A stretch of DNA of 64,000 bases from positions 3,862-67,861 of the forward strand of contig JBDZUX010000006.1 of assembly GCA_040255405.1 (NCBI GenBank), written 5' to 3'. This DNA comes from Lysobacteraceae bacterium. GTDB lineage: Bacteria; Pseudomonadota; Gammaproteobacteria; Xanthomonadales; Rhodanobacteraceae. The notes below the pieces were generated by a model. The model ran no database searches and was not told the DNA's origin. It saw only the letters and a list, made by a program, of their open reading frames with translations. A program made the position numbers and the translations under genes. Numbering within the stretch: the first letter of the stretch is position 1; every line of letters begins with the position of its first letter. Shown one piece after another: positions 7,300-30,051 of this stretch.

Positions 7300-9654
7300 T
7301 CAATGCAACGTCACGTCGCGCGGCGCGCCCGCGTCGAGCTTGACCGCGGTGAAAGCGCCGTGGTGATCGTGCCCGGTGGCCCAGCCTTCACCGGCAACCG
7401 ACTCGAGCGCCGCGGGCGTGGGGTAGTGCTCGAGCGCGCCTTCCTTCGTCCGCACGTCGGCAGCCGTGGTGCCGTGCAGCTTCACGAGGTAGTGCCGCAA
7501 TGCGGGCCGATAGCTGCCGGAAGGCGCCGCGATCCGGAACGTCACCCGGTCGCCATCACGCCAGGTCGAGAGCCGCTGCAGGAAATATGCGCCCTTCTCG
7601 TATGCGTACGTTGCGCCATCATCGTCGTAATAGTCGAAGTGCGTCGCGCGGCTGGACGGAAAGACTTCCACGGTCACGGCCGTGACCGGGCGCTGGCCGA
7701 CGTAGTCCATCACCGGCTGCGTCGGAATGATCGCGCCGTCGCGGATGAACAGCGGAATGTCGCGCCAGGCTTTGGCGTCCACCGGAACTTCGATGGTCTG
7801 GCCGCCCGCGTACGTCTTGCCGGTGAACCAGTCGGTCCATTGGCCCGCCGGAAGATAGATGCGCTTCGAAGTCTGGCCCTGCTCGACCACCGGCGACACC
7901 AGCAGCCATTGGCCGAACATCCACGCATCGACGTCGTCGCGCACCCTGGGATCGTCGGGCCAGCCGAACGTCAGCGGCCGTACCAGGCCGATGCCGTTGG
8001 CGTATTCGGAATGCTGGTACGCATAGATGTAGGGGATCAGCGATTGGCGCAAGCGGATCGCGGCGGTCGCGGCGGCTTCGGCCACCGGCCCGTAAACCCA
8101 TGGCTGGCGCTTCTCGTTGAAGGTGCCATGCACGCGGAAGATCGGCGTGAACGCGCCGAACTCGATCCAGCGCGCGTAGTTCTCGTCGGACGGATGGCCG
8201 TTGAAGCCGCCGCCGTCCATGCCCCATTTCGCCTCGCCGACGCCGATCGCGCTCAGCATGCGCGTGCGTTGCGCGGCCATGCTGGCAAAGCCCGTGTCGA
8301 TGTCGCCCGACCACATGCCGTACGCGTAACGCTGCGAGCCCAGCCAGAAGGTGCGGTTGATCGACCACACGCGCTGGTCGGTCTGCGCCCGCTGCGCGTC
8401 GTACAACGCGCGCTGCATGTTGAGGAACTGCGTGTTCGAGGTGAGCGTGCCATCCTTGCCGTACACGTCGGCTTCATCGTTCCACCAGCCGGCGATGCCC
8501 TTGTCGAAGCCGTACTTCATCGCGAGACCGGCGAACCAGCGCCGCGCTTCGGGTTTGTCGAAATCGACGTCCTTGGCCTGCTTGTGCGAAAAGTATTCCG
8601 GATACGCCTGCTCGCCCGGGATCCACAAGTCGTGCGCGGTCGCGTAGTCGCCTTCCGCGGTGCCCAGGAGCAGGCGCGGCTTCATGATGCCCGTCAAGTG
8701 CACGCCCTGGGCCTCCAGCATCTTCGCGAGCTTGCCGCTGGGCGCGTCCGGAAACTTTTCGGGATTCCAGCGGAATTCGCCGTAGTCGCCCTCGCCCCAA
8801 GCCTTCCAGTCGAAATCGAGGGTGAAGTTATCGATGGGAATGTGCTTGGCGCGATACGTCTTGACGAGGTCGAGCAGTTCCTTCTGGTCGATGCCCCACT
8901 GGCTGTTGGTGAAGCCCATCGCCCACTTCGGAAACAGCGGCGCGGATCCGCTGAGCTTGGCCAATTCCCCGAACAACTCCGTGGGCGTACCGACCAGGAT
9001 GTAATAGTCGGCGTCGGGTCGCTTGAACTTGTCGATCGTGATGCGGCCGCCCGCGAGATCGAAATCCGCGCCATCGCAATCGACCAGCACGCCGTATCCC
9101 TTGGTGCTCCACACGAACGGCGCACCGGCGTGACCCTGCTTGCCGGCCTGCGCCACCAACTTGCCGCTGCGCAGCAGGCCGGCCGTGACCGGCTGGTTGG
9201 CTTCGAAGCCGCCGATGCCGTATAGCGCATCGTCGGGCGCGTGGTCGAGCACGATGCGGCCCTGTGCCATTGCGGCGTAGTCGGTTTGCTGCAGCAACAC
9301 GCCGTGCGCACCCGCAACCTGCAATTCGCCCGTCTTGGGGTCCCAGGACACGACCATCCGGTTTGAACGCAGCGTGATGACATCACCACGCTTGCTCGCC
9401 TGCGGCTGGTACGACGGCGCCATGGCGGGATGTGGGTCGATCACAAGGCTGGACGGGGTGGCGCGTCTCTGTGCCGGCACGTAATGCACGTGCAGCACGC
9501 CGGACGCCACCATCTGCACCGAAATCGTTGCGCCATCCGGCAAAACACGCGCGCCGTCATCACGCAGCTGCGGCGTGACCGATGCATTCGCGGCCACAGC
9601 GAAGCCGGCCAGCAGCAAAACCAGAAGTGCGTACATGCGAAGGTTTGCCATCAT
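7300..9654 (-). CDS. Secreted GH31 alpha-glucosidase/alpha-xylosidase family enzyme
   Basis: The signal peptide is MMANLRMYALLVLLLAGFAVAANA. GH31 blocks are IPIDNFTLDFDW, GIAGWWNDEADV (nucleophile Asp region) and WLGSQRYAYGMWSGDI. The longer N-terminus in the track (to 9834) lacks a signal peptide and covers REP elements. Confidence 0.85.
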   Translation of the reverse strand: MMANLRMYALLVLLLAGFAVAANASVTPQLRDDGARVLPDGATISVQMVASGVLHVHYVPAQRRATPSSLVIDPHPAMAPSYQPQASKRGDVITLRSNRMVVSWDPKTGELQVAGAHGVLLQQTDYAAMAQGRIVLDHAPDDALYGIGGFEANQPVTAGLLRSGKLVAQAGKQGHAGAPFVWSTKGYGVLVDCDGADFDLAGGRITIDKFKRPDADYYILVGTPTELFGELAKLSGSAPLFPKWAMGFTNSQWGIDQKELLDLVKTYRAKHIPIDNFTLDFDWKAWGEGDYGEFRWNPEKFPDAPSGKLAKMLEAQGVHLTGIMKPRLLLGTAEGDYATAHDLWIPGEQAYPEYFSHKQAKDVDFDKPEARRWFAGLAMKYGFDKGIAGWWNDEADVYGKDGTLTSNTQFLNMQRALYDAQRAQTDQRVWSINRTFWLGSQRYAYGMWSGDIDTGFASMAAQRTRMLSAIGVGEAKWGMDGGGFNGHPSDENYARWIEFGAFTPIFRVHGTFNEKRQPWVYGPVAEAAATAAIRLRQSLIPYIYAYQHSEYANGIGLVRPLTFGWPDDPRVRDDVDAWMFGQWLLVSPVVEQGQTSKRIYLPAGQWTDWFTGKTYAGGQTIEVPVDAKAWRDIPLFIRDGAIIPTQPVMDYVGQRPVTAVTVEVFPSSRATHFDYYDDDGATYAYEKGAYFLQRLSTWRDGDRVTFRIAAPSGSYRPALRHYLVKLHGTTAADVRTKEGALEHYPTPAALESVAGEGWATGHDHHGAFTAVKLDAGAPRDVTLH

Positions 9655-9704
9655 CGAGTTTGTCCATCTTCTTGAAGCAAGCCGCAAGCGAAAACCCTCA
9701 CTCC

Positions 9705-9747
9705 TCATTCCGGGGCCGTCCGCGCTGTTTGCGGGCGGAACCCGGAA
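9705..9747. repeat. REP-type hairpin element (TCATTCCGGGG...CCCGGAA family)
   Basis: The sequence is tcattccggggccgtccgcgctgtttgcgggcggaacccggaa. It is near-identical in inverted orientation to 47194-47237, and the differences keep the inner stem paired. Confidence 0.7.
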
Positions 9748-11418: not shown

Positions 11419-12956
11419 GATGCACTCCGCGCGACTGCATGCACCGCTTCGGTCGGTGCGGGCGCGCAGGTTTTCGCCACGAAATCATCGTGCGCGGGCA
11501 AACGCTCGACCGCACGGGAAACCAGCGTACGGATATCGGACAGGAACGCCTGCAATTTCGATTCCTCCAGTCCGTCGGCCAGCGGGTGGTAACGCGCGGG
11601 TTCGACCCGCTGGCCCAGCATCACCTGCAGCCAGCCGGTTTCGGTGAACAACTCGTCGGCCTCGCGGAAGATCAATCCGGTGCGGCGGAACAGTTCGATG
11701 CGGCGCGCAAGTTCCCCGGGAACCTCCATCGCCCCGCATTGCCGCCAGAACGGCGTGTCATCGCGCTCGGTGGCCTTGTAGTGCAGGATCAGGAAATCGC
11801 GCACGCGCTCGTATTCGAAGCGCGTCTGGCGGTTGTAGGTTTCGACCAGCAACGGATCGCAATGCCTGTCCGGGAACATCCCGAGGAAGCGTGCGATACC
11901 CGATTGCACCAGGTGGATGCTGGTCGATTCCAGCGGCTCCATGAAACCGGCGGCCAGGCCCAGCGCGAGGCAGTTGCGGTTCCACGCGAGCTTGCGCATG
12001 CCGGTGACGAAGCGCAGCGGGCGCGGATCTTCCAGCCGTTCGCCCTCGATGTTGGCGAGTAATTGCGCCGCGGCCTCGTCGTCGCTGATGAACTGGCTGC
12101 TGTAGACGTGGCCGTTGCCAGTGCGGTGCTGCAGCGCGATCCGCCATTGCCAGCCGGCCGTGCGCGCGAATGCCTGCGTGTACGGCCGCATCGGCGTCGA
12201 CCTTGCGCTGGCCACCGCAATCGCGCGGTCGCACGGCAACCAATGCTGCCAGTTTTCGTAGCCCGTCTTCAGCGCGCCCTCGATCAGGAGGCCGCGGAAG
12301 CCCGAGCAGTCGATGAAGAAATCGCCTTCCACGACCTCGCCGCTTTCCAGCCGCAACGATTCGACGAAACCGTCTTCGCCGCGCAGCTTCACCTCGACGA
12401 CCTTGCCCTCGATGCGCCGCACCATGCCCTCTGGAATGCGTTCGCGCAGATAGCGCGCGTAGCGCGCGGCATCGAACTGGTAGGCGTAGCGGATGCCGCC
12501 CAGCGGCGTGTTCGGCACCTTCTCCAGCCGCGCGAACTTGTTCGAGGCGGCCGCGGCTGCGTTCAGCGAATACGCCCACAGCGAATGCGCATCGCCTTGC
12601 GCGCGGCTGCGCAACCAGTAGTGGTGGAACGGCAGCAGGCCCAGCGGCAGCCCGACGTCGCCGAATGCATGGAGGTACGAATCGCCGATGCGTCCCCAGT
12701 CGTTGAGTTGCACGCCCAGCTTGTAGGTGCCGTGAGTGAAGCGCATCAGGTCATCCTCGTCGATGCCGAGGAACGCATTGATGTGCTGGATCTGCGGGAT
12801 CGTGGCCTCGCCCACGCCGACGGTGCCGATCTCGGCGGATTCGACCAGGTGTATTTCGCAGGCGCGCCCGACACCGCGCGCCAGCAGCGCCGCCGCCATC
12901 CAGCCGGCGGTGCCGCCACCCACGATCACCACGCGCCGGATCGCCGCGTCGTTCAT
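11415..12956 (-). CDS. FAD-dependent tryptophan-halogenase family protein
   Basis: The dinucleotide fold is MNDAAIRRVVIVGGGTAGWMAA, and the near-WxWxIP block is GWQWRIALQ. The protein is about 510 aa. An alternative GTG start is at 13016. Confidence 0.8.
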   Translation of the reverse strand: MNDAAIRRVVIVGGGTAGWMAAALLARGVGRACEIHLVESAEIGTVGVGEATIPQIQHINAFLGIDEDDLMRFTHGTYKLGVQLNDWGRIGDSYLHAFGDVGLPLGLLPFHHYWLRSRAQGDAHSLWAYSLNAAAAASNKFARLEKVPNTPLGGIRYAYQFDAARYARYLRERIPEGMVRRIEGKVVEVKLRGEDGFVESLRLESGEVVEGDFFIDCSGFRGLLIEGALKTGYENWQHWLPCDRAIAVASARSTPMRPYTQAFARTAGWQWRIALQHRTGNGHVYSSQFISDDEAAAQLLANIEGERLEDPRPLRFVTGMRKLAWNRNCLALGLAAGFMEPLESTSIHLVQSGIARFLGMFPDRHCDPLLVETYNRQTRFEYERVRDFLILHYKATERDDTPFWRQCGAMEVPGELARRIELFRRTGLIFREADELFTETGWLQVMLGQRVEPARYHPLADGLEESKLQAFLSDIRTLVSRAVERLPAHDDFVAKTCAPAPTEAVHAVARSAS

Positions 12957-13109
12957 TGCGGAAAGGTACAACGCGCGATTTGCAGAATTGCCCAGGACGG
13001 CAAAAGCTTTTGACACGGATCAATACGGATGAAGGCCGGCGAAGCGACCCGATCAGTGCCGAACCTCAACCACAACCTCGTCATTTCAAGACAGTCCACC
13101 GTTTTCGTG

Positions 13110-13154
13110 CTCGTCATTCCGGGGCGCCCCGCAGGGACGAACCCGGAATGACGA
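13110..13154. repeat. REP-type hairpin with the same outer arms as the 9705/47194 elements
   Basis: The sequence is ctcgtcattccggg-gcgccccgcagggacgaa-cccggaatgacgag, with 14-bp perfect arms. It lies between the TBDR stop and the halogenase start. Confidence 0.65.
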
Positions 13155-13213
13155 GAAATTCCCATGCGACACCGACTCCGTGCCATCGATGTCCGACTCG
13201 ATCCGTGCTCCGG

Positions 13214-16072
13214 TCAGAACTTGTACGACACGCCGACTTCGTAGCGGCGCCCGTATTCCTCCCACGTCAGCACCTGGCGCGGATCGCCATTCTGGTACGT
13301 GATGAACTTCTGGTTGGTGAGGTTGGAGCCCTGCAACAGGAACGTCAGACCCTTCAGGCGACCATCGGGAATCGTGTAGCTGACCTGCGCGTCGTAGATG
13401 CTGCCGCCCTTGATGGTCTGCAGGATACGCGTGGCGCTGATGCCCTGCACTTCGCCGAGGAAGCTGGTGCGGTAGCTGTCGCTGATGCGCGCTTCGAAGC
13501 CACCCTGCTGGAAGTAGATCGTGCCGTTGGCCACCCACTTCGACAGGCCCGGCACCGTGATCGCCTGCGGATTGCCCGCGTACGTGACGGAGCTCTTGGT
13601 GTAGTCGCCCGTCAGGATGAAGCCGAAACCGTCCAGCACCGGCACCGAGGTGAAAGCCTTGAACGGCAGGTTGATCGTGCCCTGCAGGCCCTTCACGTTG
13701 CCCTTGCCATCGTTGGTCGGCCCGGACACGACACCATAGGTGGTGCCGAGCTGCTGCTTCTGCGCCGGCGACAGGAACGCGTCGACGAACGGCGCGAAGT
13801 CGTGCAGGAAGCCCGCGCTCGGATTGATGAAATCCGTGAGCTTCAGGTAATACCCGGACACCGCCATGTACCCCTGGTTCTGTGCGAAGTAGTGCTCGAG
13901 GCTGATGTTGAAGTTGTCGGCCATGGTGGGCAGCAATTCCGGGTTGCCGCCATTCGCGCTGAAGTACGACGTGTTCGGATCGGTGGAAGTCAGATGCGTG
14001 ACGTTCCCACTGATCGCAAGGCTTGCGCTCATCTGGTCCATGCGCGGCCGCGCCAGCACGCGCGCCACGCCGACGCGCAAATCGGTGCTGTCGGTGAAGC
14101 CGAACACCAGGTTGGCGCTGGGCAGCCAGCGGGTATAGCTGGTACCGCCCGAAACCGGCACCAGGGTCACGACCGAGGAACCGGTGTTGCTCGTGCCTGC
14201 CGCAACACGCTGGCCCTGCGAGGATTCGTTGGTATGCGCCACCTGCACGCCGATGTTGCCGCGCACCGGCACGTTGCCGAGTGAAGTATCCAGGCCGAAC
14301 TGCACGAACGGCGTGGTATCGAGCTCGCGCACCTTCCAGTTCGGCGGCACGCCGATCGACGACAACGCGGTCGGGAACAGGTCGTAGGTGCCATTGGAGA
14401 GCAAATCCAGCGGGTTGTAGATCACCTGCGGGCCGATGCCCATCCACGCCAGCGGATCGCCGGTCCCGGCGGACGGGATCGGCGCGGTCTGCGCACCATT
14501 CGGAAGGACGATGAAGTCCTGGCCGATGTTGTAGTTCTTGTTGCGGGTGGCGCGATCGACGCCGAACTTCACGTTCGAGAACGGGCCGCTCATGAAGTCG
14601 TACTGGACGCTCAGGCGCAGCCGCGCGAGGTAATCGTTGGTATGCGGCGCGTTGATGAAGCCCGCCTGCACCACCGGCGGATTGTTGCCGCTGCCCCAGC
14701 CTTGCGGATCGGTCAGCAGCAGGCCCTGGGTGTAGTCCTGCGCGGTGTTGACGTACAGCAGGCCGTTGGATAGTTCGCTGAAATCAATGGTGTCGAGCGG
14801 ACCCGTCTTGCTGTATCCGGTGCCCGTATAGCTTTCGAGCAGGATGTCGCTGCGGTCGGCACGCGAGTAGCTGGCATCCAGTTCGCCCGACCAGCCTTCG
14901 CTGAAGCGGAACTTGTTGTTCCAACCGATGTTCCAGACCTTGGCGCGGGTCTTGTTGTAGTCATTGCGGACTACCGCGGCCACGCCGTCATACGTGCCGC
15001 TTTGATCGAAGCCGTTCTGCGCGTTGGCGGACGCCAGCGTCGCACCGCCCCACAGCAGCGGCAGCTCCATGCCCTTGGCTTGCTGGGTCTCGCGGAAGTT
15101 GTCCCAGGTGAGGTCAAGGGTGCTGGTGAAGTTGTCGCTCGGCTTGAATTGCAAGGTCGCGAGCAGGCCCAATCGGTTCAACTGGTCCGAGATGCCGTAA
15201 TTCTTGGAACCGCCCACCACCAAATTGCCGCTCGAGTCGGTGGGATAACCCCACGGTGCCTGATGTTCGATCTGCGCCGGATTGGATTCCATATCCACCC
15301 CCAGCGTGACGCCGAAGGTGTGGTCGGCGAACTGGTCGACGTACACGCCGTTCACCGAATAGCCGTGATCACTTACGCCTTCGCCGGGGGAAAGCGTGTC
15401 GAGGCTGTTCCACACGTAGCGCGCGTTGACCGCCGCGACTCGGTGGTCTTGCTCCAGGGGCCGGATCGTGCGCATGTCCACGGTGCCCGACAGCCCCTGC
15501 CCGATGAGGCCGGCGCTGGGCGACATGTACACGACCACCGAGTTGAACCAGCTCGACGGGTACTGGTCGTATTGCACGTCGCGGTTGTTGGAAGTGCTGA
15601 CCTGCTCGCGGCCGTTGACGAGCGCGGTCGAGAAATCGGGGCCAAGGCCGTGGATCGTGAGCACCTGCGGACGGCCGCTGAGCGTTTGCACCGCGAGGCC
15701 GGGCAGCCGGCCGAGCGTGTCGGCGATGCTGGTGCCCGGCAGTTTGCCGATCTGTTCGGCGGAAACCGCTTCGACGATTTCGTCGGAGTTGCGCTTGATC
15801 GCGGTGGCGTTCTGCAGGCTTCCGGCGTAGCCGTGTACGTTGATGGCCTGCAATTGGGTCGGCTGGCCCTTGCGCTTCTTTTGCTTGTCCGCGTCCGCCG
15901 GATCCTGGCTGGTGGTGTCCTGGTCGGTGGCGGTGGATTGCGCTTGCGGCTGCGCCTGTTCCTGCGCACCGCCCGCAGGTGCGCTGGCGGCGAAGGCGAT
16001 GTTGGCGCAAGTCGCGAGGCCGATGCCCGCGGAGAGCAGCGCCAGCGTCAGCATGTTGCGTTTCGGTTGCAT
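13214..16072 (-). CDS. TonB-dependent outer-membrane receptor (oligosaccharide/maltodextrin type)
   Basis: The signal peptide is MQPKRNMLTLALLSAGIGLATCANIAFA. A Gln/Thr-rich linker follows, then the plug block IVEAVSAEQIGKLPGTSIADTLGRLPGLAVQ, a long beta-barrel and the terminal ...YEVGVSYKF. Start taken at ATG 16072. Confidence 0.92.
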   Translation of the reverse strand: MQPKRNMLTLALLSAGIGLATCANIAFAASAPAGGAQEQAQPQAQSTATDQDTTSQDPADADKQKKRKGQPTQLQAINVHGYAGSLQNATAIKRNSDEIVEAVSAEQIGKLPGTSIADTLGRLPGLAVQTLSGRPQVLTIHGLGPDFSTALVNGREQVSTSNNRDVQYDQYPSSWFNSVVVYMSPSAGLIGQGLSGTVDMRTIRPLEQDHRVAAVNARYVWNSLDTLSPGEGVSDHGYSVNGVYVDQFADHTFGVTLGVDMESNPAQIEHQAPWGYPTDSSGNLVVGGSKNYGISDQLNRLGLLATLQFKPSDNFTSTLDLTWDNFRETQQAKGMELPLLWGGATLASANAQNGFDQSGTYDGVAAVVRNDYNKTRAKVWNIGWNNKFRFSEGWSGELDASYSRADRSDILLESYTGTGYSKTGPLDTIDFSELSNGLLYVNTAQDYTQGLLLTDPQGWGSGNNPPVVQAGFINAPHTNDYLARLRLSVQYDFMSGPFSNVKFGVDRATRNKNYNIGQDFIVLPNGAQTAPIPSAGTGDPLAWMGIGPQVIYNPLDLLSNGTYDLFPTALSSIGVPPNWKVRELDTTPFVQFGLDTSLGNVPVRGNIGVQVAHTNESSQGQRVAAGTSNTGSSVVTLVPVSGGTSYTRWLPSANLVFGFTDSTDLRVGVARVLARPRMDQMSASLAISGNVTHLTSTDPNTSYFSANGGNPELLPTMADNFNISLEHYFAQNQGYMAVSGYYLKLTDFINPSAGFLHDFAPFVDAFLSPAQKQQLGTTYGVVSGPTNDGKGNVKGLQGTINLPFKAFTSVPVLDGFGFILTGDYTKSSVTYAGNPQAITVPGLSKWVANGTIYFQQGGFEARISDSYRTSFLGEVQGISATRILQTIKGGSIYDAQVSYTIPDGRLKGLTFLLQGSNLTNQKFITYQNGDPRQVLTWEEYGRRYEVGVSYKF

Positions 16073-22029: not shown

Positions 22030-24096
<2,067 letters not shown>

Positions 24097-24118
24097 CCCG
24101 ACATTATACGTTTGCCCT

Positions 24119-24137
24119 GCTGACAACCCTTGTCAGC
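24119..24137. promoter_or_regulatory. Short inverted repeat in the uvrB / SIR2-TIR divergent region
   Basis: GCTGACAA-ccc-TTGTCAGC has 8-bp perfect arms. Confidence 0.3.
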
Positions 24138-24234
24138 AAGGTGCCGCAGGCCGGCAACCACCCGCCGTGGGCAGCCCATGCAACCGGCCATCCGCTGGAG
24201 TAAGCTCCGCGCGTCCATTGCGAGGGTTGGCGAA

Positions 24235-25617
24235 ATGACGCTGCCGAACGCTGTCGAGACGCCGCAGAGTTTTGACGACGACGCATGGGACGACCTCCTC
24301 AATTACATCGAGGAGCACCGGGTCATTCCGATCATCGGTCCCGACCTGCTGCGGGTGCAGACCGACGGCGGCCTGCGCCCCCTGTACGTCTGGCTCGCGG
24401 AGAAACTGGCGGCGCGCCTGTCGGTCAACACGACCGAACTGCCGCAGCCGCTCACGCTCAACGACGTGATGTGTTCGTACCTCGGCCAGCGCGGGCGCCG
24501 CGAGGAAGCCTACACGCGGTTGCGTTCGATCATGCGCGAGGTGCAATTCGAGCCGCCGATGGCGTTGCGGCAACTGGCGCAGATCGCCGACTTCGACCTG
24601 TTCGTCACGACGACCTTCGACCCGCTGCTCGAAAACGCCGTCAACCAGGAACGTTACGGCGGCCAGCCTTCGGCCGAAGTGATCGCCTACTCGCCCAACC
24701 GCGTCGCCGACCTGCCCTGCGAACGCGCCGACCTGCGCCGCAGCGTGGTGTACCACCTGCTCGGCCGACTGTCCGCCTCGCCCACGTACGTGTTGTCCGA
24801 CGAGGACATGCTGGAGTTCATCTGCGCGTTGCAGTCCGAACACCTGACGCCGGAAAAACTCTTCCACGAACTTGAACACAACCACCTGCTCCTGATAGGC
24901 AGCGACTTCTCCAACTGGCTGGCGCGGTTGTTCCTGCGCATGGCCAAGCGCAAGCGCCTGTCCGACCCGCGCGATGTCACCGAGGTTTTCGCCGACGACC
25001 ACACCGCCAAGGACGCACGCCTGGTCGCGTTCCTGCAGCAGGTCAGCGTGCGCACGCGCGTGTACGGCGGCGCGGAATCCTTCGTCGCCGAGCTGCACCA
25101 GCGCTGGAGCGCGCGCCAGCGCCCGGCGCAGACCTCGCCTTCGCATGCGCCGCAACGCTTCCTGCCGCCGGCACGCGAGATGCCGGAGAACGCGATCTTC
25201 ATCAGCTACGCACGCGAGGACCTGCCCGCGGTGCAACGGTTGAAAGCCGGCATGGATGCGGCCGGGCTCACCACCTGGTTCGATCTCGACCGTCTCGAAG
25301 GCGGCGACGATTACGATCGCAAGATCCGTGCGAACATCGCGCGTTGCAGTTTCTTCGTGCCAGTGATTTCGGCCACGACCGAGCACCGCCACGAAGCCTA
25401 CTTCCGCCGTGAATGGAGCTACGCGGTCGACCGCGCGCGCAACATCGCGGAAGGCGCGGTGTTCATCCTGCCGGTTTGCATCGACGACACGCCCGAAGCC
25501 ACCACACTGGTGCCGGAGCATTTCAAGGCGGTGCACATGACGCGCCTGCCAAGCGGCGAGGCCACGCCGGGATTCCTGCGCCGCTTGCAGGAACTGCTGA
25601 GCGGGAGGCGCGCATGA
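24235..25617 (+). CDS. SIR2-like (SIR2_2-type) domain / TIR domain fusion protein
   Basis: N-terminal blocks are VIPIIGPDLL, DLFVTTTFDPLLENA, VVYHLLGRLSASPTYVLSDEDMLEF and HLLLIGSDFSNWL. The C-terminal TIR domain is AIFISYAREDLPAVQRLKAGMDAAGLTTWFDLDRLEGGDDYDRKI...CSFFVPVIS...YFRREWSYAVDRA...FILPVCID. GAGGG lies 8 nt before ATG 24235, with an alternative ATG at 24178. Confidence 0.8.
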   Translation: MTLPNAVETPQSFDDDAWDDLLNYIEEHRVIPIIGPDLLRVQTDGGLRPLYVWLAEKLAARLSVNTTELPQPLTLNDVMCSYLGQRGRREEAYTRLRSIMREVQFEPPMALRQLAQIADFDLFVTTTFDPLLENAVNQERYGGQPSAEVIAYSPNRVADLPCERADLRRSVVYHLLGRLSASPTYVLSDEDMLEFICALQSEHLTPEKLFHELEHNHLLLIGSDFSNWLARLFLRMAKRKRLSDPRDVTEVFADDHTAKDARLVAFLQQVSVRTRVYGGAESFVAELHQRWSARQRPAQTSPSHAPQRFLPPAREMPENAIFISYAREDLPAVQRLKAGMDAAGLTTWFDLDRLEGGDDYDRKIRANIARCSFFVPVISATTEHRHEAYFRREWSYAVDRARNIAEGAVFILPVCIDDTPEATTLVPEHFKAVHMTRLPSGEATPGFLRRLQELLSGRRA

Positions 25618-28600
25618 ACGACATCAACCGCCGCGACACGGTGATGCTCGATCCGGAAAACCCCTGGCTCGGGCTGTTTTCCTACTCCGAGGAAACCCGC
25701 GCGTATTTCCACGGCCGCGACGAGGAAGCGGCGGAGCTCGCGCGGCGCGTGCAGCGCAAACTGTTGACAGTGCTGTTCGGGCAATCGGGCCTGGGCAAGA
25801 CTTCGCTGTTGCGCGCGGGTCTGGTGCCGCGCCTGCGCGGTGCCGACTTCTGCCCGGTTTACGTGCGCGTCGACTACGCGCCCGGATCGCCCTCGCCTTC
25901 CGAGCAGATCAAGCAGGCGATCTTCCGTGCCACCGCGGAAGCCGGCCACTGGACGCGGCCGGGTAGCGCGATCGAAGGCGAATCGCTGTGGGAATTCCTG
26001 CACCACCGCGAAGACCTGCTGCGCGATGCCGACGGCCACACGCTGATGCCGCTGCTGATCTTCGACCAGTTCGAGGAAATCTTCACGCTCGGGCAGGCCG
26101 ATGACGCGGGCCGCCTGCGCGCAAAACAGTTCCTCGAGGACCTCGCCGACCTCGTCGAGAACCGTGCGCCGGCGGCGCTGGAAAAACGCCTGGAGGAAGA
26201 CGACCAGGCCGCCGAACAGTTCGATTTTGCGCGTGCCGATTACCGCGTGCTGATCGCGCTGCGCGAGGACTATCTCGCGCACCTGGAAAGCGTGAAGGAC
26301 ATCATGCCTTCGATCACGCAGAACCGGATGCGGCTGGCGCGCATGAACGGCGCGCAGGCACTGAGCGCGGTGGTGAAACCCGGCGGCAAGCTGGTATCGC
26401 AGGAAGTCGCCGAAGCGATCGTGCGCTTTGTCGCCGGGGGGTCGGAACTGGCCAACGCGGAGATCGAACCTTCGCTGCTGAGCCTGGTATGCCGCGAACT
26501 CAACGCGGCACGGCAGGCGCAGGGACGCCGCGAAATTTCCGCCGACCTGCTGGCGGGCTCACGCGACACGATCCTGTCCGAGTTCTACGAACGCGCACTG
26601 GCCGACCAGCCGACCGGCGTACGGCGCGTGATCGAGGACGAACTGCTGACCGAATCCGGCTATCGCGAAAGCCTGGCCGAGGAACGCGTGCGCAAGGCAC
26701 TGGACGCCGCGGGCGCCTCTCCCGATGCGTTGCCCACGCTGGTGAACCGCCGCTTGCTGCGCATCGAGGAACGCCTCGACATGCGCCGCGTGGAACTGAC
26801 CCACGACGTGCTGTGCAGCGTGGTGCTCGCCAGTCGCAACCAGCGCCATGCCCGCGAAGCGCGCGAGGAAGCCGAGCGCCAGCTCACCGCGCAACGCGAA
26901 CGCGAGGCAGCAACGCACCGCGCCCTGCTGCGCACGCGCATGGTCGCGACCGTCTGCGTGGTGTTGCTGGTACTCGCGATCATCGCAGCGATGTTCGGCT
27001 TCATCGGCATGCACCGCGCCAAGATCGCGCAGGCGGAAGCCCAGGCCTCGCGCACGCACGCGGAAAACCTGGTCGGCTTCATGATCGATGACTTCTACAA
27101 CGAGCTCGCACCCACTGGCCGGCTAGGCACGCTGGGCATGCTGGCGCAGAAAACCGTGGATTACTACGACGGCTTGCCGCCGGCGTTGCTCACCCCGGAA
27201 ACCGAAATCAACAAGGCGATGGCGCTGGTGCGCCTGGGTTCGGCCCAGAATGCCAGCGGCGACGACAAAGCCGCGCGCAAGAATTTCGGCGAAGCCCAGG
27301 CGATCTTCGGGAAGCTGCGCGCGGCGGGCAACGATGGCGAGCCGGTGGTCTATGGCCTCGCCTCGATCCTGTACAACGCGAATTACGGATCCGCCGTGGG
27401 CGGCGGGAGTTCGGCGCCGATGGATCAGGCTGCCGCCCTGCTGCGGCCGCTCGTCAACGCTGCCAATCCGTCGCGCCGGGTGCGGCAACTTTACGCCGAT
27501 ACCTTGAACATCATCTGCCTCAACCAGCGGCCGCAGCAAGGCCTGGCAACCTGCGAAGAGGCGCTCAAGACGCTTGCGGGCCTTGGCGCGCTGGATTTGT
27601 CGGATTTGAATGCCGCAGCCTCCTGGGCCGATACCGCCGATACCAAGTCCGGGGAACTGCAGGCACTCGGCCGCATCGGTGAAGCCGAAAAGCTGGAGCA
27701 GCAGGTGTTTGCGATGACCGAAAAGGTCCTGGCGCGCCGGCCGGGCGATTTGCATTCGCTGGAAGATCGCTTCTTTGCCGTGAAGCGGCTCGGTGATCTT
27801 GCGGCGGGCCGGCACGATGCGACGGCGGCCGCGAAGCATGCGAACGAAGCCGTGCAGGCCGCCGAGGATTGGGTACGCTTCGACCCGTCCAGTGTCGATG
27901 CCTGGGCCAGGCTGGCGCAGGCCCGGAGCCAGGTTGCCACGTTCCAGTTCGAGCGCGGCGAGGTATCCACTTCCATCGCCACCCTGCGCGCGGCGCTGGC
28001 GTTGGCGCAGGACCCGCGCAGCCCCAAACCCCTCGCTGCCGTGACCTGGTACATCCGGCTCGACCTCGCGAGAGCCATCGCGGAGACCGGCGAAGGGGGG
28101 GCGGAGCAGTCGGCGCAGGCCGCCGTGCGGGACCTGCAATCGCTGATGGCGGATCGGCCGCCCGAATCTGCCCAGCGCCGGCTTGCGGCGACCAACCTGC
28201 CGCTGGCACTCGGGGATATCAAACTGAGCCAGGGTGCACTGCAACCGGCATTGGCCGAGGCCACCGCGGCGCGCGCCGCAATCCAGCCGATCGATGTGCC
28301 GGCGACGGACGCAGGCGCGACCCGCTGGAAAAACCAGAACCTGGCGGACAGTCTCAACGTCGCCACGCGAGCCTCCATGCAGCTCGGGCGCTACGCGCAA
28401 GCGGAAACCCTGGCGCGCCAGTGGCTCGCGATCATCCCGAACGCGACGGCCACGCAAGCCGATCCGAAACCGCGTGAATCGCGCGCCCGGTACATCCTCG
28501 CGCAGGCGATCGCGATGCAGGGCCGCCGCGACGAGGCCAAGGCAACCCTGCAACCGGCGATGACCTGGTACCGTCAAGAACAACAAGCCGGCGCGACCGG

Positions 28601-28808
28601 CACGTCGTTCCGCCACGATTACGCCTACGCGCTGTACGTTGATTCCCTGATCGCGCCTGCGGGCGCCGCGGGCAGCAGGCAGCGCGACGCTGACCTCGAC
28701 CAGGCCGCCAGGTTGCTTGCCGGAGCCTCGCCGGAGGCGCAGCGACTCAGCGCGATGCGCCATATTTCCGGGCTGCTCGCCAAAGCCCGCACGACGACGG
28801 GCGCCTGA
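25614..28808 (+). CDS. nSTAND-type P-loop NTPase with one TM helix and a C-terminal helical-repeat (TPR-like) domain
   Basis: The ATG overlaps the upstream stop (ATGA 25614-25617). The N-terminus is NPWLGLFSYSEETRAYFHGRDEEAAELARRV..LTVLFGQSGLGKTSLLRAGLVPRL (Walker A). Walker B is LLIFDQFEE. The TM helix is MVATVCVVLLVLAIIAAMFGFIGM (nt about 26940-27011). About 600 aa of Ala/Leu-rich helical repeats follow. The track start 25413 lies inside the upstream gene. Confidence 0.8.
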   Translation: MNDINRRDTVMLDPENPWLGLFSYSEETRAYFHGRDEEAAELARRVQRKLLTVLFGQSGLGKTSLLRAGLVPRLRGADFCPVYVRVDYAPGSPSPSEQIKQAIFRATAEAGHWTRPGSAIEGESLWEFLHHREDLLRDADGHTLMPLLIFDQFEEIFTLGQADDAGRLRAKQFLEDLADLVENRAPAALEKRLEEDDQAAEQFDFARADYRVLIALREDYLAHLESVKDIMPSITQNRMRLARMNGAQALSAVVKPGGKLVSQEVAEAIVRFVAGGSELANAEIEPSLLSLVCRELNAARQAQGRREISADLLAGSRDTILSEFYERALADQPTGVRRVIEDELLTESGYRESLAEERVRKALDAAGASPDALPTLVNRRLLRIEERLDMRRVELTHDVLCSVVLASRNQRHAREAREEAERQLTAQREREAATHRALLRTRMVATVCVVLLVLAIIAAMFGFIGMHRAKIAQAEAQASRTHAENLVGFMIDDFYNELAPTGRLGTLGMLAQKTVDYYDGLPPALLTPETEINKAMALVRLGSAQNASGDDKAARKNFGEAQAIFGKLRAAGNDGEPVVYGLASILYNANYGSAVGGGSSAPMDQAAALLRPLVNAANPSRRVRQLYADTLNIICLNQRPQQGLATCEEALKTLAGLGALDLSDLNAAASWADTADTKSGELQALGRIGEAEKLEQQVFAMTEKVLARRPGDLHSLEDRFFAVKRLGDLAAGRHDATAAAKHANEAVQAAEDWVRFDPSSVDAWARLAQARSQVATFQFERGEVSTSIATLRAALALAQDPRSPKPLAAVTWYIRLDLARAIAETGEGGAEQSAQAAVRDLQSLMADRPPESAQRRLAATNLPLALGDIKLSQGALQPALAEATAARAAIQPIDVPATDAGATRWKNQNLADSLNVATRASMQLGRYAQAETLARQWLAIIPNATATQADPKPRESRARYILAQAIAMQGRRDEAKATLQPAMTWYRQEQQAGATGTSFRHDYAYALYVDSLIAPAGAAGSRQRDADLDQAARLLAGASPEAQRLSAMRHISGLLAKARTTTGA

Positions 28809-28895
28809 GCACAGGGGTCTTCCCCACGCAACCCGACGCCCCCAAGTTCCTGGCAAGCACCACCCGGGCACGTTCAACCGAAGCGGAACCGCGCC

Positions 28896-29321
28896 ATGGA
28901 CACAGATGAAATCCACGTTGGCCGACTGGGCATCCGTTACCTCGTCGATGGCGCTCAGCAGGGAAGCATGGGCATCTTCGAATTGACCGTGCCGCCTGCC
29001 TCGAACGTTCCGCCCCCGCACAGCCATTCGAACAACGAAGAAATCGTCTACGTCCTCGAGGGCACGCTGCGCTACAGCGTCGGCGCCGACACGCGCGATC
29101 TCGCACCCGGGGAATCCATGCACACCCCAAAGGGTACGGTGCACGGGTTCTCGAATCCCTTTGCCGGCACCGCGCGAGCGCTGATCGTCATGTCTCCGGA
29201 CCTGGGCGCCCAATACTTCAGGGAGATGGCCGCGGTGATCAACGCAGGCGGGCCACCGGACAAGGGCACGCTGGTCTCCATCATGAGCCGCTACGGACTG
29301 GTCCCGTCCGCCCCGAAGTGA
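28896..29321 (+). CDS. Cupin domain protein
   Basis: The 141-aa ORF has the metal motif PPPHSHSNNEEIVYVLEG...H.P.G.VHGF. Confidence 0.75.
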   Translation: MDTDEIHVGRLGIRYLVDGAQQGSMGIFELTVPPASNVPPPHSHSNNEEIVYVLEGTLRYSVGADTRDLAPGESMHTPKGTVHGFSNPFAGTARALIVMSPDLGAQYFREMAAVINAGGPPDKGTLVSIMSRYGLVPSAPK

Positions 29322-29499
29322 CTGGCTGCCGACACTTGCACGCGCCTCGCATGCCGCCGCCGGCCAGGTGATCAACCGACGGAAGACCGACACCCTTACA
29401 TCGAGCGTGGGCAGGCGCCCACAAACACCGGCGGCGTCTACCGCTGCCGCGAATTCTGTCCGTCGCCGAGACTGTTCCCATCGCATGGAGGGAACGGTC

Positions 29500-30051
29500 A
29501 TGGCTCCATCTGCACGCACCGCACGTGGCTTCACCCTGACGGAACTGCTGATCGCGCTGGCGATTGCCGGAATTCTCGCGATGATCGGTGCGCCGGCGAT
29601 GGGCGGCCTGATCGCCCGCACGCGGGATTCCGGCATCGAAGACGCGATTGCCGCGGGCTTGCGCGGCGCGCGCACTGCCGCGGTCATGCGCAACTCACGC
29701 GTGCTGGTGTGCCCGAGTTCGAATGGACACCGATGCGCGTCGATCGCGGATTGGCAACACGGCTGGATCATCGCGCAGGATGCGGACCACGATGGCCAGC
29801 CCGATCCGGGCAGGTCGATCCTCGACGTGCAAGCTGCCATGCCCGCCGGCACGCACGTGATCACCAGCGCCGGGCGCAGGCGCATCGATTTCCAGCCGAG
29901 CGGCAGCGCGGGCGGCAGCAACGTGACCTTCACCATCTGCCACGCGCGCGAACACGCTGGCAGGGCGGTGATCGTGGCCAACTCCGGACGCGTGCGGGTC
30001 GCGCATGCCGACGCCATGCACCTTCAGGCGTGTCTTGCCGGGATCCCGTAA
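29500..30051 (+). CDS. fimT: GspH/FimT-family type IV minor (pseudo)pilin
   Basis: The prepilin leader and N-methylation site are MAPSARTARG|FTLTELLIALAIAGILAMIGAP. GGAGGG lies upstream of ATG 29500. The C-terminal region contains AGRRRIDF (GRxR-like). Confidence 0.8.
   Translation: MAPSARTARGFTLTELLIALAIAGILAMIGAPAMGGLIARTRDSGIEDAIAAGLRGARTAAVMRNSRVLVCPSSNGHRCASIADWQHGWIIAQDADHDGQPDPGRSILDVQAAMPAGTHVITSAGRRRIDFQPSGSAGGSNVTFTICHAREHAGRAVIVANSGRVRVAHADAMHLQACLAGIP

Follow-up and report, generated by a model that had tools for sequence, protein, structure and literature searches.

A two-gene SIR2-like/TIR and membrane nSTAND1 cassette beside uvrB in Rhodanobacteraceae: a candidate conflict or surveillance system

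The locus described here raises the question of what a tightly coupled gene pair, one gene encoding a SIR2-like/TIR protein and the other a membrane-spanning nSTAND NTPase, does beside the housekeeping gene uvrB, and whether it is a named defence system, a different conflict system or part of the ordinary physiology of its host. The pair (24235-28808) lies in a 64,000-nt stretch of contig JBDZUX010000006.1 from a Lysobacteraceae bacterium; this whole stretch is called the window, and its numbering is used throughout. With middling confidence, and by analogy with better-known STAND and TIR proteins, we propose that the two genes form an accessory cassette for conflict (or surveillance), in which a membrane STAND switch carrying a periplasmic sensor would work with a cytoplasmic TIR partner. 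The original prediction, made from the letters of the window, had described two open reading frames (ORFs) overlapping in ATGA and divergent from uvrB, and the ORF list and our reading of the sequence agree with it in coordinates, overlap and orientation. The features of the pair are as follows.

22030-24095 or 22030-24126, minus strand: uvrB, divergent from gene 1, its end depending on the start codon chosen.
24235..25617, plus strand: gene 1, an ORF of 460 amino acids (aa) from ATG to TGA, encoding the cytoplasmic SIR2-like/TIR protein.
24274..25122, plus strand: SIR2-like (SIR2_2/'SIRim'-type) domain, residues ~14-296, from Foldseek and hhalign; catalytically degenerate.
25189..25554, plus strand: TIR domain, residues ~319-440, with putative catalytic E393, from Pfam TIR_2, PDB profile matches and hhalign.
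25614..25617, plus strand: ATGA stop/start overlap of genes 1 and 2, within gcgcATGAacg at 25610-25620.
25614..28808, plus strand: gene 2, an ORF of 1064 aa from ATG, encoding a single-pass membrane nSTAND1 NTPase with a TPR superhelix.
25662..26897, plus strand: nSTAND1 NTPase module, residues 17-428, from Pfam.
25779-25805, plus strand: Walker A motif.
26052-26078, plus strand: Walker B motif.
26940..27011, plus strand: transmembrane helix, residues 443-466, from Kyte-Doolittle hydrophobicity, preceded by a long Arg/Glu-rich helix.
27081..28793, plus strand: TPR-like superhelix, residues ~490-1060, from AlphaFold2 and Foldseek; predicted periplasmic from topology, and fast-evolving.

For gene 1, the N-termini of homologues favour the ATG at 24235 over an upstream TTG at 24130, and the stretch between this start and uvrB measures 108-139 bp according to the choice of uvrB start. 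Public databases already contain both proteins; one identical to the gene 2 product is present without a name in entries from metagenome-assembled genomes (MAGs), and close cluster members from Rhodanobacteraceae MAGs are labelled 'hypothetical protein' or 'TIR domain-containing protein'.

The linkage of the two genes was examined in 166 loci that were fetched by similarity to gene 1 from GTDB genomes, metagenomes and exact-match contigs. In 161 of them gene 1 is adjoined by a homologue of gene 2, and the five exceptions all lie at contig edges with less than 200 bp left; both ORFs are intact in about 160 loci. In the metagenomic protein P0297, nSTAND1, SIR2_2 and TIR_2 domains occur in a single chain that lacks a transmembrane helix, a Rosetta-stone fusion of the two products, although it rests on a single 5.4-kb contig and may be a gene-calling artefact. 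An overlapping pair also occurs on a 2.5-Mb replicon of Paraburkholderia caribensis, where a SIR2-TIR gene of 30% identity is overlapped by an nSTAND1 gene; the nSTAND1 partner there has one transmembrane helix, but its C-terminal domain is different and short. A CHAT protein and a MAP3K_TRAF_bd/TPR-S protein are encoded near this pair. The adjacency, the fusion and the recurrence of the overlapping pair in Paraburkholderia bear out the proposal that the effector is supplied in trans, and gene 1 and gene 2 are, judging from their linkage across genomes, a functional unit. The SIR2-like/TIR module also has other N-terminal partners in metagenomic proteins, being fused to a caspase in P0364 and to a second TIR domain in P0322; in a further metagenomic protein, P0338, an N-terminal region of ~580 aa has no Pfam match. 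The family is large: gene 1 matches 1,593 clusters (50% identity) at E <=1e-30, the best 120 clusters are all at least 84% identical to it, and most of the 150 matches listed are full-length proteins of ~440-500 aa.

Gene 2 had been described as an nSTAND NTPase without an effector domain of its own, and the Pfam search points the same way. Residues 17-428 match nSTAND1 (PF20703) at E 9e-33, with 114.9 bits against a cut-off of 27.1 and profile positions 1-368 of 379 covered; beyond this module, the only matches are to TPR and stay below threshold. The Walker A motif (G56-S64, GQSGLGKTS) and the Walker B motif (L147-E155, LLIFDQFEE) are invariant in 48 homologues. The prediction of one membrane helix followed by helical repeats is likewise supported by the hydrophobicity profile and by the AlphaFold2 model. 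The sole strongly hydrophobic segment is at residues 443-466, where the Kyte-Doolittle mean over 19 residues (KD19) is 3.0, compared with at most 1.6 elsewhere, and the Paraburkholderia partner has its transmembrane segment at the equivalent place (residues 433-451). Residues ~500-1060 are modelled as about 25 helices arranged in hairpins, with a predicted local distance difference test (pLDDT) score of ~90, and the Foldseek matches of this C-terminal fold are TPR superhelices, including Ski3, Ctr9, APC subunits and OGT; the fold search covers the TPR part, the NTPase half being of low confidence in the model. Since the NTPase is cytoplasmic and only one membrane span follows it, residues ~470-1064, with a TPR superhelix of ~570 aa, are predicted from topology to be periplasmic. 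A periplasmic repeat domain is unusual for STAND sensors. Among 117 homologues, the NTPase module has an identity of ~90%, whereas that of the C-terminal domain is 36-75%.

Gene 1 encodes no hydrophobic segment (maximum KD19 = 1.17), and both of the domains that had been proposed for its product were recovered. At the C-terminus, residues 321-436 match TIR_2 in Pfam at E 9e-17, with 62.1 bits against a cut-off of 28. A profile search of the PDB matched this domain to TcpB/BtpA, PdTIR, AbTIR, the SPARTA TIR-APAZ protein and SARM1, and E393 aligns with the catalytic E642 of the SARM1 TIR domain (hhalign, probability 92%). E393 and W394 are conserved in at least 90% of 37 diverse members of the family, which are 37-66% identical to the window protein. 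At the N-terminus, residues 122-253 match SIR2_2 at E 2e-11, with 44.5 bits against a cut-off of 24.5. The PDB profile search with gene 1 returned TIR chains only and no SIR2 chain, so that a fold search and hhalign were needed for this part. An AlphaFold2 model of the gene 1 product, built from the alignment of the 37 diverse relatives, has a mean pLDDT of 90.5, and its best folds in the PDB are ThsA, the SIR2-STAND protein Avs5, KomC and DSR2 (Foldseek, E 1e-10 to 1e-7); ThsA is the best of these, and the SIR2 domain of the Avs5 filament (PDB 9jap, 9nc9) is among the matches. Because these are the best PDB matches, the N-terminal 300 residues of the model do have a defence-type SIR2 fold.

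To avoid ascertainment bias, relatives for a test of the insertion site were picked by UvrB and not by the pair. In all four of them the uvrB-gspH site is empty and the pair is absent: a MAG with 86% UvrB identity, a second MAG with 82%, Fulvimonas soli with 80% and Dyella sp. BiH032 with 79%. At these empty sites gspH is directly divergent from uvrB, with a spacer of ~100-150 bp. Local alignment of the window with the empty site of locus L166 shows that homology stops at 24146 and resumes at 29441, and the corresponding interval in the empty site is ~20 nt. The insertion therefore occupies 24147..29440 (~5.3 kb) and holds gene 1, gene 2 and a cupin gene. No flanking direct repeats or att-like sites were evident when both junction sequences were read, a reading made without a repeat finder. 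The pair is thus not a universal core of its clade, a possibility that the original prediction had raised against itself. The high conservation of gene 1 across relatives had also given rise to the idea of a core pair that evolves more slowly than UvrB; this idea was rejected on the empty sites and on the lack of correlation between gene 1 divergence and uvrB divergence, the former being neither consistently below nor consistently above the latter.

The histories of the cassette and its neighbour were compared in 15 loci where uvrB stands together with both genes of the pair. The pairwise identity of gene 1 correlates with that of the gene 2 NTPase (Spearman +0.58) but not with that of uvrB (Spearman -0.21), and the C-terminal domain of gene 2 shows no correlation in identity with uvrB, gene 1 or the NTPase. 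Compared with the window, locus L097 has a UvrB that is 95% identical and a gene 1 that is 83% identical, while at L005 the values are 81% and 91%. In hosts with UvrB identities of 88% or more, at least five classes of the periplasmic domain can be told apart, at <70% identity. Median ratios of nonsynonymous to synonymous substitution rates (dN/dS) are similar for uvrB (0.11), gene 1 (0.13) and the NTPase of gene 2 (0.12), and higher, at 0.31, for the C-terminal domain of gene 2. The synonymous rate dS was rejected as a clock for transfer, because its values of 0.5-0.7 for all genes are near the plateau in this GC-rich, codon-biased lineage, and the timing of transfer cannot be read from them. 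The picture suggested by these comparisons is of a cytoplasmic module under strong constraint, coupled to a sensor that diversifies and can be exchanged, with the whole cassette apparently exchanged among lineages at a fixed chromosomal site. Such an evolutionary pattern fits a conflict system better than a housekeeping one.

A third gene, possibly for a further component or effector, accompanies the pair in part of the family. In 82 loci gene 2 is complete and is followed by 2 kb or more of sequence; of these, 21 have a gspH context like that of the window, and 16 encode a ~575-aa SLATT/DUF4231 protein with two transmembrane segments directly downstream on the same strand. This gene is at 14580-16307 in L044, and the 15 others include L014, L024, L026, L033, L057, L075 and L093. 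The middle region of the protein matches DUF4231 in 13 of 13 aligned members (best E 2e-9), SLATT_3 in nine and SLATT_1 in eight. SLATT domains were reportedly proposed by Burroughs and colleagues in 2015 to be membrane effectors of nucleotide-signalling conflict systems, and a signalling role for the TIR product is plausible in the SLATT-bearing lineages for this reason. The window has no SLATT gene, and therefore the TIR domain itself may be the terminal effector there. The possibility that the N-terminal domain of the SLATT protein (~200 residues) is a SLOG domain was tried and rejected: hhalign against the SLOG domain of ThsA gave nothing, and a weak YAcAr/SLOG match was found in one of the 13 members (E 0.03).

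Under the proposed mechanism, an extracytoplasmic cue would bind the periplasmic TPR domain, which would serve as the variable sensor. The signal would cross the inner membrane and lead to NTP-dependent oligomerisation of the cytoplasmic nSTAND1 module, which would in turn cluster the SIR2-like/TIR partner. Packing of TIR against TIR would then create active NADase sites, and NAD+ would be depleted or converted to a signalling nucleotide, leading to growth arrest or death; in the sister cassettes, the TIR step would activate the adjacent SLATT membrane effector. The mechanism, the interaction between the products of gene 1 and gene 2 and the trigger are modelled on Avs, bNACHT and NLRs for the switch and on SARM1, AbTIR, ThsB and SPARTA for the TIR domain. 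The domains, catalytic residues, single span, linkage, fusion, site polymorphism, decoupling from the host and contrast in rates come from direct analysis of the sequences.

Several observations weigh against a conflict cassette or limit the case for it. Purifying selection on gene 1 and the NTPase is as strong as on UvrB; such constraint is unusual for immune effectors, and a physiological signalling role would also fit it. The flanks of L081, a syntenic relative with Pfam-labelled genes, are all housekeeping genes (glucokinase, uvrB, gspH, an HMG-CoA-synthase-like gene, amiC and tsaE), and no mobility gene and no defence-related gene is among the flanks by the L081 labels, to which the window flanks were matched by ORF translation and tblastn only. 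The family was not found in 50,697 phage records (INPHARED) nor in IMG/VR, and it hardly occurs on plasmids. The cassette has no model in PADLOC, which gives generic TIR matches for gene 1 and none for gene 2 at E <=0.1. In the model of gene 2, pLDDT is only 30-70 over the NTPase half, MAGs or metagenome contigs are the source of most of the loci, and dS is close to saturation. Finally, a conserved histidine of the SIR2-like domain, H174, lies two residues upstream of the position of a lost catalytic histidine, which gives a non-canonical SIR2 activity a slight probability.

A more specific form of the conflict reading, which we advance tentatively as a possibility, is that the cassette is a bacterial transmembrane innate-immune receptor with a layout like that of Toll-like receptors. 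In such a receptor the diversifying periplasmic TPR domain would sense a threat, extracellular or periplasmic, ahead of its arrival in the cytoplasm or during it; the STAND module would be a relay across the inner membrane, the TIR domain the enzyme and the SIR2-like domain an adaptor or allosteric nucleotide sensor, and in the sister cassettes a SLATT pore would be gated by the TIR product. Candidate threats for a sensor of this type are phage adsorption or injection machinery, a competitor toxin and envelope damage. The likeness to animal Toll-like receptors is an analogy only, and consists of an extracytoplasmic solenoid sensor, one transmembrane helix and cytoplasmic TIR-based signalling. 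The sensors are not homologous (TPR as against leucine-rich repeats), and in the cassette the TIR domain, probably an enzyme, sits on a protein of its own, with a STAND NTPase between the membrane and the TIR domain.

Of the alternatives, a transmembrane receptor outside conflict survives best, although we consider it rather unlikely. Here the periplasmic TPR domain would monitor the envelope or the environment, and the STAND/TIR module would make an NAD-derived messenger or act as a scaffold, with no killing. This would be in keeping with the housekeeping neighbourhood free of mobility genes, with the UvrB-like dN/dS of gene 1 and the NTPase and with the absence of the family from phages, viral contigs and ordinary plasmids; hosts with UvrB differences of up to 23% also keep the cassette at the same site, and a gene with a nucleotide-cyclase domain stands beside the pair in some sister loci. 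However, the pair is polymorphic for presence and absence at the uvrB-gspH site, its history is incongruent with that of the adjacent uvrB, and its sensor domain diversifies and is shuffled. The fusions to a caspase or an extra TIR domain, and the CHAT, TPR-S or SLATT neighbours, also speak against it, as these are typical of predicted conflict systems in passages of two papers on such systems (PMC7159879, PMC8195603).

Within the conflict reading, the original prediction had gone further and called the gene 1 product double-headed, with SIR2 and TIR domains that both consume NAD+, acting in trans to a STAND sensor in anti-phage abortive infection. Both domains exceed their Pfam cut-offs, the SIR2 fold matches the NADases ThsA, DSR2, KomC and Avs5, the SIR2-like domain is highly conserved, and H174 and D129 are conserved near canonical positions. 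The catalytic residues argue otherwise. The SIR2 domain of ThsA, whose reference sequence was checked against PDB 6LHX, was aligned with the family profile by hhalign (probability 77%), and a profile of close relatives gave an identical register. In this alignment N112 of ThsA (TTNYD) falls on T127 of gene 1 (TTTFD) and H152 (YKMHGD) falls on L176 (YHLLGR), and the register is anchored by the invariant G177 beside L176, which aligns with G153 of ThsA. The GAGxS loop of SIR2 is replaced by G35-P-D-L-L. The catalytic Asn is kept in 2 of the 37 diverse members and the catalytic His in none of the 37. Mutation of either residue abolishes the NADase activity of ThsA and of human FAM118B (10.1101/2024.09.18.613514). 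Since both canonical catalytic residues are replaced, the SIR2-like domain of gene 1 is very probably not an NADase, the claim of two NAD-consuming heads does not hold up, and we regard such a double effector as improbable. The TIR domain is the only credible catalytic head of gene 1 for the same reason. In the conflict cassette that we favour, the SIR2-like domain would most likely be an adaptor, an oligomerisation scaffold or a nucleotide-binding regulatory domain.

The loss of the SIR2 catalytic residues is, to judge from the diverse members, ancient and family-wide and not a recent decay. The reading that the pair is what remains of a defence system in decay or without function, its SIR2 domain dead and its effector gone, could point to this loss and to the lack of a third effector gene in the window, unlike in the SLATT-bearing sister loci, but it is extremely improbable given that both ORFs are intact in about 160 loci, that the Walker motifs are invariant and the TIR Glu nearly so, that the catalytic loss is so old and widespread, and that the selection data (dN/dS 0.12-0.13) largely refute it.

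We next compared the cassette with known systems. The original prediction recognised no named system in the pair, and neither did we: PADLOC matches the TIR domain of gene 1 only and gives no match for gene 2, NCBIfam gives weak TIR-domain matches only, and the terms 'SIR2-TIR' and 'TIR-SIR2' were not found in the literature searched, where nSTAND1 is mentioned in four papers only. The layout is not described in passages of conflict-system papers or of a 2026 STAND census (PMC13581612). Among the closest known systems are the predicted nSTAND1 (PF20703) conflict systems, of whose NTPase clade gene 2 is a clear member. Passages of Kaur, Iyer, Burroughs and Aravind (2021, PMC8195603) present nSTAND1 as the NTPase core with which effectors of various kinds, TIR among them, are assembled, whereas neither a SIR2-like/TIR partner in trans nor a transmembrane helix with a periplasmic TPR domain is described in passages of that paper and of PMC7159879.

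Avs (AVAST) systems, especially the SIR2-STAND protein Avs5 and TIR-STAND proteins, share with the cassette a STAND switch, C-terminal TPR-type repeats and an NAD-targeting effector fold. However, Avs is a single cytosolic polypeptide with the effector at its N-terminus and senses phage proteins inside the cell, whereas the cassette has its effector on a separate gene, a sensor predicted to lie outside the cytoplasm, a membrane-anchored NTPase of the nSTAND1 clade and a SIR2-like domain without catalytic residues; no PADLOC Avs model matches gene 2 at E <=0.1. The bNACHT and bacterial NLR-related proteins likewise link a STAND switch with an effector and with sensor repeats, TIR and SIR2 being among their effectors, but they are single-chain and cytosolic, and gene 2 matches nSTAND1 instead, with NACHT not among its Pfam matches at E <=0.1. 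The notion that a partner domain might sense the product of a TIR domain comes from Thoeris. Like the cassette, Thoeris has TIR and SIR2 folds in one system, and in structure gene 1 matches its ThsA best. In Thoeris, however, the TIR protein ThsB and the SIR2-SLOG protein ThsA are separate while the cassette has both folds in one polypeptide, the STAND NTPase has no Thoeris counterpart, and the SIR2-like domain lacks the equivalents of N112 and H152. The sole ThsB match of gene 1 in PADLOC is a weak TIR-domain match (E 0.014), and no SLOG, Macro or other sensor domain was found in the Pfam and NCBIfam scans of either protein. SPARTA and SPARSA pair a short pAgo with a TIR-APAZ or SIR2-APAZ protein, whereas the partner in the cassette is an nSTAND1 NTPase and not an Argonaute; the PADLOC match to Aga_TIR-PNTD covers the TIR part only (profile positions 3-107 of 430). 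By its predicted domains, the cassette is not Thoeris, Avs, bNACHT or SPARTA, and the features that would distinguish it among systems with STAND and TIR proteins are the predicted extracytoplasmic sensor, the effector in trans and the conserved SIR2 pseudo-enzyme.

Other genes adjoin the pair in the window and in sister loci. In the window, a cupin gene (Cupin_2, 141 aa) at 28896-29321 lies between gene 2 and gspH within the inserted segment; among 80 genome loci it occurs only in the closest relative, L001 (82% identity), and is a second small indel. The gspH/fimT-like pilin ORF at 29368-30051 has a mechanical start at GTG 29368, and alignment with an empty-site relative suggests that the real start is an ATG at about 29485-29500 (MEGTVMAPSAR...). 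Just upstream of uvrB, a perfect 9-bp inverted repeat, TGCTGACAA-ccc-TTGTCAGCA, is found at 24118-24138 and is adjoined by a TATAAT on the uvrB strand (24103-24108). The repeat is also kept in the cassette-free relatives L166, Fulvimonas (L168) and Dyella (L169), so it is part of uvrB regulation, not of the cassette; it is perhaps a uvrB operator.

In sister loci, a protein of ~490 aa with a C-terminal adenylate/guanylate-cyclase domain is encoded downstream of the pair in L147 (12029-13507) and in six others, which belong to the clade whose gene 1 identity is 72-74%. By hhalign, the cyclase protein gave in its middle region a weak, non-significant match (E 0.025) to the SLATT protein's N-terminal domain. 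TIR_2-TPR paralogues that carry the motif EGYFRxEW of the gene 1 TIR domain are neighbours of the pair in six loci, some of which have two of them (L146, at 11790-13709, and L049, L059, L098, L159 and L164). In the Rudaea context (L082-L084), a NUDIX hydrolase gene at 9287-9742 is divergent from the SIR2-TIR gene and ~260 bp upstream of it, which may be a coincidence or a link to ADP-ribose metabolism.

The architecture is common and yet absent from PADLOC, and defence predictors that rely on context would probably miss the cassette because housekeeping genes surround it. The SIR2 fold without catalytic residues, constrained as strongly as UvrB, offers a way to probe non-catalytic SIR2 domains. 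The STAND sensors with which the cassette was compared, Avs and bNACHT, are single cytosolic polypeptides. If the proposed reading is true, a STAND/NLR-type switch would also be wired to an extracytoplasmic sensor, and bacteria would have a receptor with the topology of a Toll-like receptor.

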